Part shown: one piece after another, positions 32,226 to 43,120 of the stretch
Position numbering within the stretch: the first letter of the stretch is position 1
Layout of the letters: every line of letters begins with the position of its first letter
IMG/VR virus record: IMGVR_UViG_2721755660_000011
Source: a virus
Lineage: Duplodnaviria; Heunggongvirae; Uroviricota; Caudoviricetes
Length of the DNA: 52,258 bases
Direction: 5' to 3' (one strand)
Notes under the pieces: model-generated
The model's input: only the letters and a program-made list of their open reading frames with translations
What the model was told of the DNA's origin: nothing
Databases searched by the model: none
Position numbers and translations under genes: made by a program

Positions 32226-32378
32226 TTATTCAGATTTGCGCAGTAAAGGCCGGAGCACGACCAGCACCATCACCACCAGCACACCATCTGCCAGTACCGA
32301 CATCAGCCGTCCGGTAAAATCCACCACCACTACCAGAAACAGCAGGATGGCAGCCAGCACAAGGCGCGCACTTTTCAC
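32226..32378 (-). CDS. Putative small hydrophobic membrane peptide (50 aa, GTG start)
   Basis: Hand translation on minus strand: VKSARLVLAAILLFLVVVVDFTGRLMSVLADGVLVVMVLVVLRPLLRKSE; GTG start overlaps the stop of the upstream 141 aa ORF in a GTGA arrangement. Not in the ORF track (under 60 aa). Confidence 0.3.
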   Translation of the reverse strand: MKSARLVLAAILLFLVVVVDFTGRLMSVLADGVLVVMVLVVLRPLLRKSE

Positions 32379-32800
32379 AGGTACTGCTCCAGTGGTAGCT
32401 GCAGCGCCTGAGCAATTTTCTTCAGTTGCGCTTCTTCATCCGGGCCAATGCCGTCCTGGTCAGCGATATCCAGACACAGGCACAGCACATTAACTGCGTC
32501 ATCAGTACCGGCAACATCAGCCAGCTGACGAAGGGCTTCAGCATTGGCAGAGCGCGGCGACGCTTCATAACGGGCGCGGATATTTGCACTCATTTGTGCA
32601 ATCTCACCGGAGAACGGCGCAAAGGCAGGAAGTGCTGCAATGGTTTTCTCCAGTACCGCGATTTCTTTCGCGTCACAGGTGTCGTCAGCGTATGCAATGG
32701 AATACGCACCCCAGACGGTCGCCTCCACTGCGTCGCGGTTCTCCATCTTCTTCACTTCGGTAATGGCCTTGCGAGTTTTCTTTTTGAAAATACCAAACAT
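32375..32800 (-). CDS. Hypothetical acidic alpha-helical protein (cargo at stx-equivalent position)
   Basis: 141 aa ORF downstream of the phage tRNA cluster and upstream of the holin; composition Ala/Glu/Asp-rich; possible TerB-like fold is a guess only. Confidence 0.5.
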   Translation of the reverse strand: MFGIFKKKTRKAITEVKKMENRDAVEATVWGAYSIAYADDTCDAKEIAVLEKTIAALPAFAPFSGEIAQMSANIRARYEASPRSANAEALRQLADVAGTDDAVNVLCLCLDIADQDGIGPDEEAQLKKIAQALQLPLEQYL

Positions 32801-32974: not shown

Positions 32975-33051
32975 TGGCGCGTTGTACTGGATTCGAACCA
33001 GTGACCGATTGCTTAGAAGGCAATTGCTCTGTCCGACTGAGCTAACAACGC
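32975..33051 (-). tRNA. tRNA-Arg (anticodon UCU), phage-encoded (argO/argN-like)
   Basis: Reverse complement GCGTTGTTAGCTCAGTCGGACAGAGCAATTGCCTTCTAAGCAATCGGTCACTGGTTCGAATCCAGTACAACGCGCCA folds as canonical cloverleaf; anticodon loop CTTCTAA. Confidence 0.8.
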
Positions 33052-33152: not shown

Positions 33153-33228
33153 TGGTGGCCCTTGCTGGATTTGAACCAGCGACCTGGCGATTATGAGTCG
33201 CTCGCTCTCACCACTGAGCTAAAGGGCC
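33153..33228 (-). tRNA. tRNA-Ile2-like (anticodon CAU), phage-encoded (ileZ-like)
   Basis: Reverse complement GGCCCTTTAGCTCAGTGGTGAGAGCGAGCGACTCATAATCGCCAGGTCGCTGGTTCAAATCCAGCAAGGGCCACCA closely resembles E. coli ileX-type tRNA; anticodon loop CTCATAA. Confidence 0.8.
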
Positions 33229-33268: not shown

Positions 33269-34327
33269 TCATCCGTTCTGACTGACTAAATCCTGAACTT
33301 CCTTGACCGTCTGCTCAAAACGCTCAGTCTCCAGCTCAACGCCAATTGCACGACGTCCCAGCGCCATCGCTGCTTTGACCGTCGAACCCGACCCCATGAA
33401 AAAATCTGCAACCAGATCTCCCGGACGACTGCTTGCGCTGATTATCTGCTGCAACATTTCTGCCGGTTTTTCGCACGGATGTTTCCCGGGATAGTACTGC
33501 ACCGGTTTATGCATCCACACATCGGTGTACGGCACCTGCACAGTCACACCGAAATACCGCCGCAAATTTTTATATTCTCTCAGCAGTTCCGTATACTGCC
33601 GGTTCAGTTCACTGTATGTGCTGACCAGCTGGTGGTGTGGCTGCTCCAGTTCACCGCGCTGATGTTTTTCTGCTGCAACACGCGCAAACAACGCCTGCAA
33701 TTTGTTGTAATCAGCTTCGTTCGGTAACTGCCACTGACTGGTACCAAACCAGTGCGAAGCCATGTTTTTCTTTCCGGTGGCTTCCGCTATCTGTTTTGAC
33801 GTTATTCCCAGTTCGGCACGAGCATCCCTGAAATACGATATCAGCGGTGCCATTATGTGCTGTTTGAGTTCCCTTTCTTTTGCCGCATAGCCGTCACTTT
33901 TGCCGCGATATGGCCCCTGGTAATGTTCAGCAAACAGAACGCGCTCTGTGGCAGGAAAATATGCGCGCAGACTTTCTTTATTACACCCATTCCAACGTCC
34001 AGACGGCTTCGCCCAGATGATATGGTTAAGCACGTTGAAACGTTCACGCATCATGATCTCAATATCAGATGCCAGGCGATGCCCACAGAACAGGTAAAGG
34101 CTTCCGGCAGGTTTCAACACCCGCCAGAACTGGGCCAGACAGTGGTCCAGCCACTTAAGATAATCTTCGTCCCCTTTCCACTGATTGTCCCAACCGTTGG
34201 GTTTCACCTTGAAGTAAGGCGGATCGGTAACAATCAGGTCAATGGAATCATCAGGCAGGGACTGAATAAAATGCAGGCAATCAGCGTTGATTAAATCAAC
34301 ACTGTTTATTTTTACAGTATTTTTCAT
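33269..34327 (-). CDS. DNA methyltransferase (amino-MTase, likely N6-adenine or N4-cytosine), apparently orphan
   Basis: 352 aa; motif IV DPPY near N-terminus (LIVTDPPYF) and motif I FxGxG near C-terminus (DFFMGSGSTVKAA); no adjacent restriction endonuclease ORF. Confidence 0.8.
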   Translation of the reverse strand: MKNTVKINSVDLINADCLHFIQSLPDDSIDLIVTDPPYFKVKPNGWDNQWKGDEDYLKWLDHCLAQFWRVLKPAGSLYLFCGHRLASDIEIMMRERFNVLNHIIWAKPSGRWNGCNKESLRAYFPATERVLFAEHYQGPYRGKSDGYAAKERELKQHIMAPLISYFRDARAELGITSKQIAEATGKKNMASHWFGTSQWQLPNEADYNKLQALFARVAAEKHQRGELEQPHHQLVSTYSELNRQYTELLREYKNLRRYFGVTVQVPYTDVWMHKPVQYYPGKHPCEKPAEMLQQIISASSRPGDLVADFFMGSGSTVKAAMALGRRAIGVELETERFEQTVKEVQDLVSQNG

Positions 34328-34477: not shown

Positions 34478-34765
34478 TTACTGGCAGCGTCTGAATTTAT
34501 TCCCGTACCCGCCGTTATCCTTCGCCAGACCCGCCAGAACTAACTGAGTCAGTATTAACTGGCACCGGACTTCGCTTACTCCGGTAGTTCTCGTCATCAT
34601 GCGTGGCGTTACCCACTTGTCAGCAGGTAAGAAATGAAGGACTGCGGCGGCGGTTTCTGTCATATCTTGCTGTTTTAGCATGTTTTTTCCCTTCTGGTTA
34701 ACATGACATACCAATAACTCTTGTCTAAAAAGCCAGCAAGATAAAAAGTCAGTATTCACGACCAC
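34478..34765 (-). CDS. Hypothetical protein, first ORF downstream of putative late terminator
   Basis: 95 aa ORF; real start may be the internal Met at about 34681 (MLKQQDMTETAAAV...). Confidence 0.35.
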   Translation of the reverse strand: MVVNTDFLSCWLFRQELLVCHVNQKGKNMLKQQDMTETAAAVLHFLPADKWVTPRMMTRTTGVSEVRCQLILTQLVLAGLAKDNGGYGNKFRRCQ

Positions 34766-34801
34766 CAGCGTGTTTACTGTACTGCACCAAGTTTACAGGT
34801 A

Positions 34802-34820
34802 CAAAAAAACCGCTCAGCGG
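34802..34820 (-). terminator. Candidate tR'-like terminator (short GC hairpin followed by T-run on minus strand)
   Basis: Minus-strand sequence CCGCTGAGCGG followed by seven to eight T; located between Q region and the late genes, as tR' is in lambda. Stem is only 4 bp, so weak. Confidence 0.35.
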
Positions 34821-34950
34821 CGGGTTTAAGTTGTGTGGCGAAGTAACCACTCTTAACAGCATATTTGATTTTTTACGATTGTAAACGGTTGATTATTCAT
34901 CTCCAATAAAAATAATTGTGTAGGTATGCCCTTAACAATGGATAAGAAAC

Positions 34951-35397
34951 ATGAATAAAATGACTGTATTATTACTTAGCGCAACTATCATTTCAGGTTG
35001 TACTTCTTCCGTACCATTGATAAAGAAAACTCAATCAGGAAAACCTGAGGGGGTTTATCAAAATACGACAAAAGATAAAGTCAAAGATGCCCTTGTGAAT
35101 TACTGCAATAGTAGAGGGTTGATAATTTACAACGCGGATAACAGCAGTGTTATATGTGGTAAAGAACTGGAAGGCGGGTCTGCTGTTTTTGGACAAATGT
35201 TAATCGGCAATGCCTATTCAACAACCCCGGTATCAAAAGTCAGATTTACTATCGCTCAAGTTAATAACGATACAAAAGTGTGGGCCGATATGTGGATGGA
35301 AACTCAAATGGCAATGGGGCAAGTACAACAAATGGCTATAACAGACAACGCAAGCAAAAACACTATCCAACAACGTCTTGATGAATTAAAACCTTAA
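34951..35397 (+). CDS. Lipoprotein (moron), opposite strand to flanking phage genes
   Basis: 148 aa; signal peptide with lipobox IISGC (MNKMTVLLLSATIISGCTSS); AT-rich flanks; sits between Q and the late operon on the opposite strand. Confidence 0.6.
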   Translation: MNKMTVLLLSATIISGCTSSVPLIKKTQSGKPEGVYQNTTKDKVKDALVNYCNSRGLIIYNADNSSVICGKELEGGSAVFGQMLIGNAYSTTPVSKVRFTIAQVNNDTKVWADMWMETQMAMGQVQQMAITDNASKNTIQQRLDELKP

Positions 35398-35417
35398 GTA
35401 AATTAATTAAATAAAAT

Positions 35418-35440
35418 GGGGAGAAATAAATCGACTCCCC
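35418..35440. terminator. Hairpin between convergent lipoprotein gene and Q (likely terminator for minus-strand early transcript)
   Basis: ggggag ... ctcccc inverted repeat with 11 nt loop; T-rich on the minus-strand downstream side. Confidence 0.45.
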
Positions 35441-35482
35441 ACACATTAAACTGATTCAATTACCCCCTCAATAAGAGGTCTT

Positions 35483-35848
35483 CTAACGATCCATCTCTAG
35501 CTCAATTTCTAACATCATTAACATGCCATCAACTACACCTTCAGCCTTTTGCAATAAACGCCCAACCCAGCAATCAGAACGCCCATGTTTACGGGCAAGC
35601 GCCATAAACGTCATACCACCTACATAATAATCCACTAATAAATCGTGCAAATCGCTGTTGTTCTTTTTCAGGCGAGCCATGCACCCACAAATGATCATCG
35701 CGTCATCGTCACAACATTGCGGGCGGGATTTTACTTTTGAAGGGATTAGTCCTTTAAATCCTGCAGCAATAGACGACCAGGTGACATCCTCGTGATTATT
35801 TGCCACCCATGCCCCCCAACGTTCAAGAACCATTTGAATATCACGCAT
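35483..35848 (-). CDS. Q: Late gene antiterminator Q (QuuD-like)
   Basis: [74 protein letters not shown] matches my recollection of DLP12 QuuD; start placed at internal Met of ORF 35483..35863. Confidence 0.8.
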
Positions 35849-35865
35849 CAACTTTCTCCACAAAA

Positions 35866-36855
35866 TCAGGCCAGAACGCCAATTGCCAGCGCACGATCGA
35901 TAAAACGAAATATCAGCTCCAGCTGGGAGCCATACTTCTCTTCAAATGCCACGGTATCCGCATGCAGCTCGTCGTGATGCTTTCTGCACAAAGGCAACAC
36001 AAAAAGGTCATGCGCTTTTGTTCCCATTCCACCCTGACCGTGACCTATCAGGTGGTGGGGATCATCAGCAGGCTTTCCACAACATGCACACGGCTGTGTC
36101 TTAACCCAGCGCGTGTACTTTTCATTAACCCAGCGGCGACGTTTGGGGCGTAACATAAAAGACTCCGGCGACTCCGGATCCACTTTCAGCGCCAGCACCT
36201 TTTTCGCTTTATCCTGGATGATGCTGGTGGCAGGAACCGAAGGCACAAGGTCACACTCCCGGGTGACAGACGGCACAACAGGCGTCGGTAATCTCAGTGC
36301 CTTACGGGCTGCACTTTCCGGTAAGGCATCCGCCAGGTCATTACGAGCCAGCCACCAGCATAGTTCCGGCATTGTCACAACGTGACTGTCATCAAAACCG
36401 AGATCCCGACGCACGACAGATAACACCCACCGGGCACAGTTATCCGTTGCCATTGATTCCAGCCGTTCCGTGAACTGATCGCGCAGCTGGTTATCGCAGT
36501 GCCAGCACAGACGGATTGCGCCCGGAGCGTGTCGCATTGTGGTCATATTCTCGCTGTGCCAGTCGGAATGAGGCCACTGGCAGCCTTTTTCACGAAGTAA
36601 CCAGCGTTCAAGACATTCCACGCCACCAGCACGACGGATTACCGCCTCATTGCGGAACATAGCCCGAACGGCAGGATCATCCGCCAGCGGTTGTGATGCC
36701 GCCGGAACGGCACCACTGGCAAAAGATGAATAACGTTCCGGCTCAGGCTCCAGCAGGACACGCCCCTGCATAAACAGGGGCATCAGTTCTGAACCGGGTC
36801 TGAACAATACGATCCCCATACGTGGGGCAATTTCAGGGGTCAGTAGTGCTCTCAA
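35866..36855 (-). CDS. DUF968-like phage protein (YdfU-like), Cys/His-rich C-terminus
   Basis: 329 aa; adjacent to Q as ydfU is adjacent to quuQ in Qin; C-terminal C..CC and HH..H..GG motifs suggest metal-binding, possibly HNH-like. Confidence 0.5.
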
Positions 36856-41960: not shown

Positions 41961-43120
41961 TTACGCCCCCTTACCTCTGAAGAGTTCAGCGACGAATGAA
42001 TAAGACGGGCAAGAAATGCCGCATCGTTAATTCGGTCATACAGACTTACAGCCAGCGGTGATTCAGCTTTTTCCAGCATGGGATAAAGCTGCTGCAACCA
42101 GACCTGATGAATTGATGAAATGTAGGAATAGAGTACGCTGGCGTTATGTGCAACGTCGCTCGGTACAGCGGGCTTTGAAAGCTGTTTCTCCATCTGGTTA
42201 AAGGCATTGATGTATGCCTCCTTGAACTGGGCTGCACGTTTGCCAGTGAAGCCCATTGCCAAGAACGCGAAGCCGTCGCGGGTGATGTGGTAGCAAGGAA
42301 GTTTGCGAGTACCGCCGTTGGGCTGGTGTACCAAAATTGATGTCTCCGCAAAATTGCGGGCACAAAACTCTGGAGAACAATCCAAAATGCGGATCTTTTT
42401 CAGAACATCGTCATGACGTTTAGAGAAGAAGTCAGCAACAGCCAAAGAAGATGTAACAGCCTGACCATCAACGATGGCAATTTCAGGTTGAGAGAGGGTT
42501 GGGAGAGTAGTCATGGTGACAGCCCCGGTAGTCAGTTTTTCAGAAAACTCACCACATGGGACGCCAATCACAGAGGTGGTGAGACGTACAGGGTTGGCGT
42601 TACCGGAGACTACCGAACCCGGCCCGACCGAAGTCGGCCCTGTACGCCCCACCATAATTTGGGCGTAGCAATGCTCATGACACGAAAAAACCGCATGAGC
42701 GCGGTTATGCTCAGTAATCAATTTCAGGACGCCAATCCCGGCACCCGTTTTATAAGGTGCCTGAACAGTGTAACGTCCCGGAATGGCAGAATCAATGTGC
42801 TGGTGGTCCTTCACACTCAACAAAATCACGCCTGAATTTCCACAAAGGACTAAAGCACTCATGCGGGTAGTCTTTGCGAAGATAGATAACGCGCTGTGTA
42901 TCTGGTTCCCAACGAATAACATGGACATAAAGCCCTCTTCCGTCACGAAACCAGCGGTTAAGTTCCTGCACAACTCGCCCCCCACAGTCAGGTAAAGTTC
43001 TCTGTGGTTACTTACAGCCAGGTGATTTGGTAATCTGCATTCATGCCGTAACAACAGGAGTTCAGCGACGCTGACCACCAGCTGTTGCGACAAACGGTTA
43101 TTTGCCGTTAAACTGTTCAT
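41957..43120 (-). CDS. Rha-family (ORF6N domain) phage regulatory protein with unusual ~200 aa N-terminal extension
   Basis: 387 aa; residues from about 205 (EIAIVDGQAVTSSLAVADFFSKRHDDVLKKIRILD...) resemble Rha domain; ATG at 43120 overlaps upstream stop as ATGA, supporting the long form. Confidence 0.5.
   Translation of the reverse strand: MNSLTANNRLSQQLVVSVAELLLLRHECRLPNHLAVSNHRELYLTVGGELCRNLTAGFVTEEGFMSMLFVGNQIHSALSIFAKTTRMSALVLCGNSGVILLSVKDHQHIDSAIPGRYTVQAPYKTGAGIGVLKLITEHNRAHAVFSCHEHCYAQIMVGRTGPTSVGPGSVVSGNANPVRLTTSVIGVPCGEFSEKLTTGAVTMTTLPTLSQPEIAIVDGQAVTSSLAVADFFSKRHDDVLKKIRILDCSPEFCARNFAETSILVHQPNGGTRKLPCYHITRDGFAFLAMGFTGKRAAQFKEAYINAFNQMEKQLSKPAVPSDVAHNASVLYSYISSIHQVWLQQLYPMLEKAESPLAVSLYDRINDAAFLARLIHSSLNSSEVRGRK

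Follow-up and report, generated by a model that had tools for sequence, protein, structure and literature searches.

The window analyzed here, a 52,258-nucleotide stretch of Caudoviricetes DNA taken as a whole (IMG/VR record IMGVR_UViG_2721755660_000011), is a lambda-like Escherichia coli prophage whose lytic genes lie on the minus strand. Between its antiterminator gene Q and the late terminator, a plus-strand gene (34951..35397) encodes a 148-residue lipoprotein that, very probably, is a genuine moron of the type expressed in lysogens. The protein is best read as an outer-membrane-anchored periplasmic lipoprotein made in the lysogen and most plausibly serving as a superinfection-exclusion factor that acts after adsorption, a reading that draws on analogy and to which we assign a probability of roughly 0.45.

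The open reading frame (ORF) is present in the ORF list with its translation, is annotated as a coding sequence (CDS) in E. coli UTI89 and in phage PhiR40_1, and encodes a protein that is identical or nearly identical to UTI89_RS24780 (WP_001033965.1). The N terminus, MNKMTVLLLSATIISGC, comprises a signal peptide and a lipobox, I14-S15-G16-C17 (34951..35001, plus strand, with the cysteine codon at 34999..35001), an assignment based on the sequence and on the conservation of Cys17. The precursor starts with M-N-K3 and continues with the hydrophobic stretch MTVLLLSATI and then I-S-G-C17, a layout that agrees with the PROSITE rule PS51257, applied by hand: a positively charged N terminus, a hydrophobic core, and the motif [LVI][ASTVI][GAS]C with its cysteine at positions 15–35. 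Sorting of lipoproteins by the Lol system in E. coli is governed by the +2 rule. Residue +2 of this protein is Thr and not Asp, and sorting to the outer membrane is therefore expected; both lipidation and this localization are predictions from the sequence. The earlier note on this DNA, made from the letters alone, had described a 148-residue lipoprotein gene with an ISGC lipobox that is transcribed against the phage genes around it. The ORF has proved to be real and conserved, with a canonical signal peptide and an invariant Cys17, and it is antisense to Q, the DNA methylase gene, the tRNA genes, and the lysis genes, all of which are on the minus strand.

The protein matches PHROG 3152 over its full length (residues 1–148 on profile positions 1–148, E = 1.3e-104). 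PHROG 3152 is a phage protein family without an assigned function, and the lipoprotein is already in the databases as a hypothetical protein. The homologues for which the earlier note had proposed a search exist in number: a word-indexed search returned 31 clusters, all from Enterobacterales and all named "hypothetical" or "lipoprotein", and an exhaustive profile search returned 823 cluster representatives at E ≤ 0.001. The Enterobacterales homologues are 50–79% identical over the full length, and homologues with 40–79% identity are found in other Gammaproteobacteria. Cys17 is invariant in 21 homologues (alignment A1) and at least 90% conserved in 72 distant family members sampled from the profile matches (alignment A2). 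Also conserved are the motifs TxSGKPE, GNxYSTTP, and ETQMxxGQ, as well as the pair Cys52/Cys69, which probably forms a periplasmic disulfide. In 15 of the 72 distant relatives, the lipoprotein domain is fused to a C-terminal PDZ domain (for example, locus L026, 5740–6699), an observation in favor of a protein-binding role in the periplasm. Single distant members carry fusions to TPR/BamD-like, SH3_3, or SHOCT domains.

The AlphaFold model of the lipoprotein is confident, with a predicted local distance difference test (pLDDT) of 85 and a predicted template modeling score (pTM) of 0.75. It displays a β-α-β-β-α-β-β-β-α sandwich, a generic α+β fold that resembles the N-terminal domain of BamC, KA1, the Francisella lipoprotein Flpp3 (DUF3568), DUF4468, and SRPBCC proteins. 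For the BamC N-terminal domain, KA1, Flpp3, and DUF4468, the likeness is one of fold only, at 6–15% sequence identity, and no motif or functional site common to these proteins and the lipoprotein was found. Resemblances this faint and this varied do not allow a function to be transferred. No sequence match for the lipoprotein was found in Pfam, NCBIfam, PADLOC, or the PDB, and a profile search of the PDB with the 72 family members matched only the PDZ extension of some of them. A literature search on the protein, its accessions, the phage name, and the theme of lipoproteins, exclusion, and tape measures returned no paper on the PHROG 3152 family.

Of 5,426 complete E. coli genomes, 184, including UTI89, carry the 447-bp gene at 91–100% identity over at least 80% of its length, in every case on the chromosome. 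The 801-bp segment that runs from the end of Q through the left terminator is likewise found in 184 genomes, and the cassette always occupies the same slot; 50 IMG/VR contigs have the same collinear arrangement. About 3% of complete E. coli genomes, among them that of the model uropathogen UTI89, thus carry the cassette. Among 50,697 isolated phage genomes, which were searched by tblastn with three family members, homologues were found only in PhiR40_1 and PhiR55_1. The cassette is therefore carried by viable phages and is rare among cultured ones.

The gene is embedded in about 620 bp of cassette-specific, low-GC DNA (34865..35488), delimited by similarity breaks and by the GC profile. The cassette is flanked on both sides by blocks that are common to other lambdoid phages, with the left similarity break at 34859–34873 and the right break at 35489. 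The GC content is 0.35–0.40 over 34650–35550, compared with 0.47–0.58 in the flanks, and the AT-rich surroundings remarked on in the earlier note are thus seen as an island of 35–40% GC around the lipoprotein gene. A promoter-like sequence, TTGATT-16-AATAAT (34889..34916, plus strand), which matches the consensus at 9 of 12 positions in a consensus scan, lies 34 nucleotides upstream of the ATG and is the candidate lipoprotein promoter. On the other side of the gene, folding and the sequence reveal a hairpin composed of GGGGAG, an 11-nucleotide loop, and CTCCCC (35418..35440) between the convergent Q and lipoprotein genes. Its folding energy is −11.1 kcal/mol on the plus strand (z = −3.3) and −12.9 kcal/mol on the minus strand (z = −3.5), and a U-run (AUUUUAUUU) is found on the minus strand only; it is thus more likely to terminate the Q (early) operon than to serve the lipoprotein gene as a dedicated terminator. 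The earlier note had placed the gene between bracketing hairpins, the right one of which is stable and lies exactly at 35418..35440; the left one, which the note put at 34802..34820, has its stem slightly further to the right, at 34809..34823. On its own, this left hairpin is weak, with a 5-bp stem (z = −0.7) and an A-run and a T-run on either side. Apart from a sub-threshold match to STnc130, a search of Rfam returned nothing in or around the cassette.

To the right of the cassette lies Q (35483..35848, minus strand), a 121-residue protein identified by Pfam (PF06530, E = 2e-51) and by pairwise alignment. Translation almost certainly begins at the ATG at 35848 (MRDIQ...), in agreement with the 121 residues annotated in UTI89, and not at the TTG of the ORF-list call at 35483–35863. 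The protein is 85% identical to the quuD-type Q of phage 434B, with the first 80 residues nearly identical and the C-terminal 45 residues diverged, and the DNA similarity to quuD ends at the Q stop codon; the sequence comparison marks the Q of the window as a mosaic. To the left of the cassette lies a conserved late leader with an intrinsic terminator (34803..34857, minus strand; stem at 34809..34823 and T-run at 34803..34808), which was located by a terminator scan and is homologous to tR′ of SfV, downstream of Q in that phage. Bases 34700..34826 are conserved in 30 further phage records, including Stx2c phages, mEp460, Ayreon, and SfV, and the matched stretch is annotated "terminator" in SfV and Ayreon. 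The gene does lie where the earlier note placed it, between Q and a putative late terminator.

Directly upstream of the leader/terminator block, a consensus scan located a putative late promoter pR′, TTTACA-16-TATGCT (34858..34885, minus strand). A block of about 50 nucleotides (gttaagagtggttacttcgccacaca[a/g]cttaaacccgcc..ggttttttt) is common to the window, cdtI, phiP27, mEp460_4F5, and vB_EcoS-569R4, whereas the DNA upstream of it differs from phage to phage, and in each of them a −10-like hexamer is found 0–5 nucleotides before the block. Identity to the Q protein of the window is no more than about 47–50% for those of cdtI and phiP27. That phages with differing Q proteins share the leader/terminator block while the upstream DNA varies suggests that the specificity of Q resides wholly upstream of the transcription start. 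The same distribution suggests that the leader and the terminator constitute an exchangeable module. In SfV, the Q stop codon is followed, within 106 nucleotides, first by TTGCAT-17-TAAGAT, then by a pause element like that of lambda (AACGATGGG), and then by a terminator (aacccgccgctgagcgggttttttt) almost the same as the left terminator of the window; in both SfV and mEp460, the promoter is about 50–70 nucleotides before the homologous terminator. By analogy with these phages, we somewhat favor a layout in which pR′ lies at 34858..34885, followed by a short leader and the terminator, and the cassette lies between Q and pR′. If pR′ does lie there, the candidate lipoprotein promoter would be back to back with it. 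The slot between Q and the late operon, in which the earlier note had placed the gene, is thus retained, with the correction that the moron probably lies between Q and pR′ and not between pR′ and its terminator. A pR′ located directly after Q, with the hairpin at 35418–35440 as its terminator, is less likely, as only 42 nucleotides separate the Q stop codon from that hairpin; a promoter might also overlap the 3′ end of Q. Because the Q allele of the window was never seen without the lipoprotein cassette, comparison does not settle the position of pR′, and neither a comparative paper on pR′ nor a preprint on the structure of Q21 contained a sequence usable for placing it. A paper on the prophage small RNA (sRNA) svsR was considered as a link to the late leader and set aside, the relevant terms being absent from it. 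A 37-residue ORF annotated in PhiR40_1 (34749–34862, minus strand) begins in the TATGCT hexamer and runs through the terminator; it is probably spurious because cdtI has no ATG at the same point.

The slot itself is a site of presence and absence. It is empty in SfV, is occupied by the lipoprotein cassette in two phages and in the 184 E. coli genomes, and contains unrelated cargo in six phages: cdtI, mEp460, mEp460_4F5, vB_EcoS-569R4, phiP27, and 434B. The cargo consists of two antisense ORFs in cdtI, of other antisense ORFs in mEp460_4F5 and vB_EcoS-569R4, and of a same-strand ORF of 409 residues in phiP27. In mEp460 it is mEp460_051 (mEp460 locus, 2604–3305), a 138-residue protein of PHROG 4748 with the lipobox LVGC, encoded on the same strand as Q. 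On either side of this different lipoprotein moron in the same slot stands a copy of the late terminator. The two copies are nearly identical and look like a trace left by the insertion. The 434B record has the porin gene nmpC, interrupted by IS5, on the antisense strand just after Q, in a quuD-type segment that the record marks as non-434 and that we take to be that of DLP12; the DNA of this Q gene is 83% identical to that of the window. The slot was likened in the earlier note to the one that holds nmpC in DLP12, and the 434B record agrees with that comparison, as nmpC lies on the opposite strand just after a related Q. NmpC of DLP12 and Lc of PA-2 share the slot, the antisense orientation, and the location downstream of a closely related Q with the lipoprotein, but there the cargo is a 16-strand porin. 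In addition, nmpC in the quuD-type region of 434B appears to lie after the promoter, leader, and terminator that adjoin Q, whereas the cargo here seems to lie between Q and pR′. The other cargo proteins of the slot all belong to PHROGs without an assigned function. The stretch from Q to the late leader/terminator is a hot spot of recombination in which many unrelated cargo genes are accommodated.

Outside E. coli, relatives of the gene are found mainly in a different setting. In a scan of viral contigs made with alignment A1, 23 of 25 diverged IMG/VR contigs have the gene inside a lambda-like tail-tip cluster, in each case on the strand of the tail genes, and most loci from GTDB and from assemblies are also in such clusters; related genes occupy the tail clusters of prophages of Salmonella, Citrobacter, Morganella, Proteus, Photorhabdus, and Haemophilus. 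At least five insertion junctions are seen: between the tape-measure gene and M, between M and L, between K and I, after the tape-measure gene plus two ORFs, and before the tape-measure gene. The gene lies between K and I in Salmonella, Jejubacter, and Morganella, directly after the tape-measure gene in Citrobacter and several others, between M and L in a further variant, and after the tape-measure gene and two small ORFs in Proteus. In one contig it precedes the tape-measure gene, and in one assembly it follows J. A nin region is the site in one Phytobacter lineage, and a P1-like element carries one Enterobacter copy; three Halomonas loci have it near DUF3164, a domain known from Mu-like phages, and these loci are apparently Mu-like. 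The gene thus moves between phage modules.

Although these copies are located inside late operons, a canonical terminator with a GC-rich stem and a T-run is found within 100 nucleotides downstream in 14 of the 16 copies inspected. In an operon read by Q-modified polymerase, a private terminator would be pointless unless the gene also had a transcript of its own that starts without Q, as in the lysogen. Moreover, the AT-rich gaps upstream of the homologues have a mean σ70 match of 8.1, compared with a background of 6.9. The foreign base composition, the presence or absence of the cassette and the alternative cargo in the slot, and the promoter-like and hairpin elements are the structural marks of a moron, and the designation as a moron in the earlier note is upheld by them. 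The lipoprotein gene is predicted to be expressed from the repressed prophage. The one lead on expression is a promoter-trap study of UTI89 that lists UTI89_C5108 (UniProt Q1R2A6) among the genes induced inside bladder cells (PMC5404293). By gene order, UTI89_C5108 may be the lipoprotein gene.

These features suggest the following model. The gene would be transcribed from its own promoter, divergent from the probable pR′, with transcription ending at the hairpin shared with the convergent Q gene; with a promoter of its own, it could be made in a repressed lysogen, independently of the lytic program. The precursor would be exported by Sec, lipidated, and cleaved at Cys17, which would leave a compact α+β domain of 130 residues in the periplasm on a short tether, some 15 residues long. 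The envelope of the lysogen would thereby be modified such that incoming phages are blocked after adsorption, through binding to a conserved periplasmic component of the entry pathway or to ejected tail-tip or tape-measure proteins, and not through the masking of one receptor.

The exclusion function proper is a tentative proposal, somewhat short of an even chance. It is a guess prompted by the likeness to HK97 gp15, Ltp, Cor, and Llp and by the family's frequent location among tail-tip genes. The occurrence of moron and exclusion genes in tail modules is an established theme (HK97 gp15, cor, and T5 llp). HK97 gp15, encoded within the tail operon beside the gene for the tape measure, and Ltp of the Streptococcus phage TP-J34, a lipoprotein said to target the tape measure, are reportedly exclusion proteins that act on DNA entry or on the tape measure. 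Both are encoded by moron-style genes with their own signals, and the commonest neighbors of PHROG 3152 genes are those for the tape measure, M, K, and I. HK97 gp15 is, however, an inner-membrane protein, Ltp is helical and comes from a phage of a Gram-positive host, and neither is related to the lipoprotein in sequence or fold.

Several results weigh against this proposal. Morons with all kinds of functions often insert into tail modules, and location in a tail module alone is therefore weak evidence. The PHROG 3152 family also occurs in a P1-like element and in apparently Mu-like prophages, which means that a target specific to lambda-like tails is not required. None of the defense-protein models of PADLOC-DB 2.0 matched at E ≤ 0.1, the database names of family members are only "hypothetical protein" or "lipoprotein" with no annotation of phage exclusion, and Foldseek returned no match for the model at E ≤ 0.001, the resemblances in fold being generic. 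As to expression, the promoter calls are consensus matches in AT-rich DNA, no conserved promoter was found in the upstream DNA of six aligned homologues, and the hairpin at 35418..35440 has no U-run on the strand of the lipoprotein gene.

A role in host fitness or virulence such as that of Bor, whereby the lipoprotein would confer resistance to serum or complement, promote adhesion, or make the envelope more robust with no effect on phages, is rather unlikely, although the kind of gene is the same. Lambda Bor (PF06291) is likewise a small prophage lipoprotein whose lipobox is of the classic kind. Its gene, too, belongs to the late region of a lambdoid prophage and runs against the lysis genes, and in the lysogen it has a promoter of its own. 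Bor has 97 residues and its gene follows Rz, whereas the lipoprotein has 148 residues and its gene lies between Q and the late terminator. PF06291 did not match the lipoprotein at E ≤ 0.1 in Pfam, and hhalign pairs only residues 1–38 (34 columns), so that the similarity is confined to the signal peptide; the mature domain matches neither PF06291 nor the Bor sequence, in line with the impression in the earlier note that the protein is not Bor. The strains that carry the gene include extra-intestinal pathogenic and avian E. coli, such as UTI89 and APEC 102026, and the fold resembles that of Flpp3, but strains from food, water, and livestock carry the gene just as well. Homologues in symbionts of insects and nematodes, in Halomonas, and in Haemophilus argue against a niche-specific virulence role. 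Induction of UTI89_C5108 inside bladder cells would speak for such a role if that tag is the lipoprotein gene. In the DFI-seq table of the UTI89 study (PMC5404293), many neighboring tags from C5078 to C5163 score together, which suggests a regional effect. The lipoprotein could alternatively assist the lytic cycle, being made late with the tail genes and acting in the periplasm of the dying cell, for example by keeping progeny virions from losing their DNA to cell debris or by tuning lysis. Most copies outside E. coli are indeed co-oriented with the late tail operon and embedded in it, such that late read-through transcription would express them, and a debris-protection role has been ascribed to T5 Llp as well. 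We regard it as unlikely in view of the terminators that 14 of the 16 embedded copies have of their own. The E. coli copy, moreover, is antisense to all lytic transcription, which makes its expression by that transcription unlikely, yet it is 78–79% identical to tail-embedded copies. That only 2 of the 50,697 phage records have the gene indicates that it is dispensable for lambda-like tails.

A receptor blocker of the Cor/Llp type would bind the periplasmic face of the outer-membrane receptor that is used by the phage's own J protein and inactivate it. Cor (phi80, N15, HK022, and mEp167) and T5 Llp exclude FhuA-dependent phages. These lipoproteins of siphophages, temperate or virulent, are anchored in the outer membrane and exert their effect from the periplasm, and their genes adjoin tail or receptor-binding genes, much as those of the PHROG 3152 family mostly adjoin tail-tip genes. 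Here, in contrast, no co-variation is seen between the lipoprotein and the part of J that binds the receptor. In the IMG/VR contigs L090 and L091, the lipoproteins are 99% identical and the N-terminal parts of J 97% identical, but the C termini of J are unrelated. Likewise, the mature lipoprotein of the window is 78–79% identical to those of Salmonella and Jejubacter, but the N-terminal parts of J are only 35% identical and the C termini cannot be aligned. This uncoupling of the lipoprotein from the C-terminal domain of J makes a receptor-matched blocker very unlikely, and the family is also found in P1-like and apparently Mu-like elements. The suggestion in the earlier note of a surface-exclusion or virulence factor, as with Bor or Cor, is plausible in general terms and unlikely in its Cor-like version. 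No annotated PHROG family of the Cor/Llp type matched; the Pfam and PHROG scans showed no profile similarity to Cor or Llp (only PHROG 3152 matched), a result that does not include a direct pairwise comparison with either protein, and the FhuA-Llp structure was not among the fold matches. Finally, a chance or decaying ORF in an AT-rich spacer was considered, given that functional annotation is lacking everywhere and that the 3′ hairpin is not a textbook terminator on the gene's own strand. This explanation is scarcely credible and was rejected on the basis of full-length conservation at 50–79% identity across genera, the invariant motifs and lipobox, the 823 profile matches, the confident fold, and the intact gene in 184 genomes. 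The J proteins of L090 and L091, which are 97% identical over the first 700 residues and unrelated over the C-terminal 180, are in themselves an example of a clean swap of the receptor-binding domain.

Morons in general are the subject of a review (PMC3594210). By remodeling the envelope, prophage morons determine the phages to which a strain is open and, in some cases, its behavior in a host. If exclusion after adsorption and independent of the receptor were true of the lipoprotein, it would represent a new class of mechanism in the superinfection exclusion of Gram-negative bacteria and would offer a handle on the poorly understood periplasmic stage of DNA delivery by siphophages. More speculatively, and with rather long odds, PHROG 3152 could found a widespread, unrecognized class of lipoproteins of Gram-negative phages that are tied to lambda-like tail-tip modules independently of the receptor-binding domain, that would be seated on the inner, periplasmic face of the outer membrane, and that block genome delivery after adsorption, for instance by capturing ejected tape-measure or tail-tip proteins. 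Such a class would be the diderm counterpart of the Gram-positive Ltp system, and its PDZ-fused relatives would point to the recognition of a protein terminus.

The remainder of the prophage is organized as follows. The minus-strand order is a DUF968/YdfU gene (35866..36855), Q, the low-GC gap, an ORF of PHROG 331, a DNA methylase gene (33269..34327), tRNA-Met, tRNA-Arg, and the lysis genes; further on is a complete lambda-type tail cluster with the tape-measure gene, M, L, K, I, J, and Lom. The PHROG 331 ORF (34478..34680, minus strand), which belongs to a family without an assigned function and is the first after the terminator, encodes 67 residues (E = 8e-31 for a longer reading of 95 residues) and is annotated as a 204-nucleotide CDS in UTI89, mEp460, and cdtI and as a TrmB-like regulator in one record. 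Downstream of the methylase gene, tRNA-Arg(TCT) and tRNA-Met(CAT) are encoded at 32975–33051 and 33153–33228 on the minus strand; phiP27 has tRNA-Arg (argO) and tRNA-Ile (ileZ) at the tRNA position. Between the tRNA genes and the holin gene, an ORF of 141 residues (32375–32800, minus strand) belongs to PHROG 632 ("tellurite resistance", category moron) and constitutes a second cargo gene in the late leader region. In addition, Rfam identifies a C4 antisense RNA (82 bits) and the Hfq-binding sRNA isrK (60 bits) at 42572–42659 and 42684–42760 on the minus strand, a pair that represents a P1/P7-type RNA module for antirepressor control inside a lambdoid prophage. The Rfam RNA IS009 is matched at 3971–4168 (minus strand; 120.6 bits against a gathering score of 117), adjoining the tail-fiber genes.

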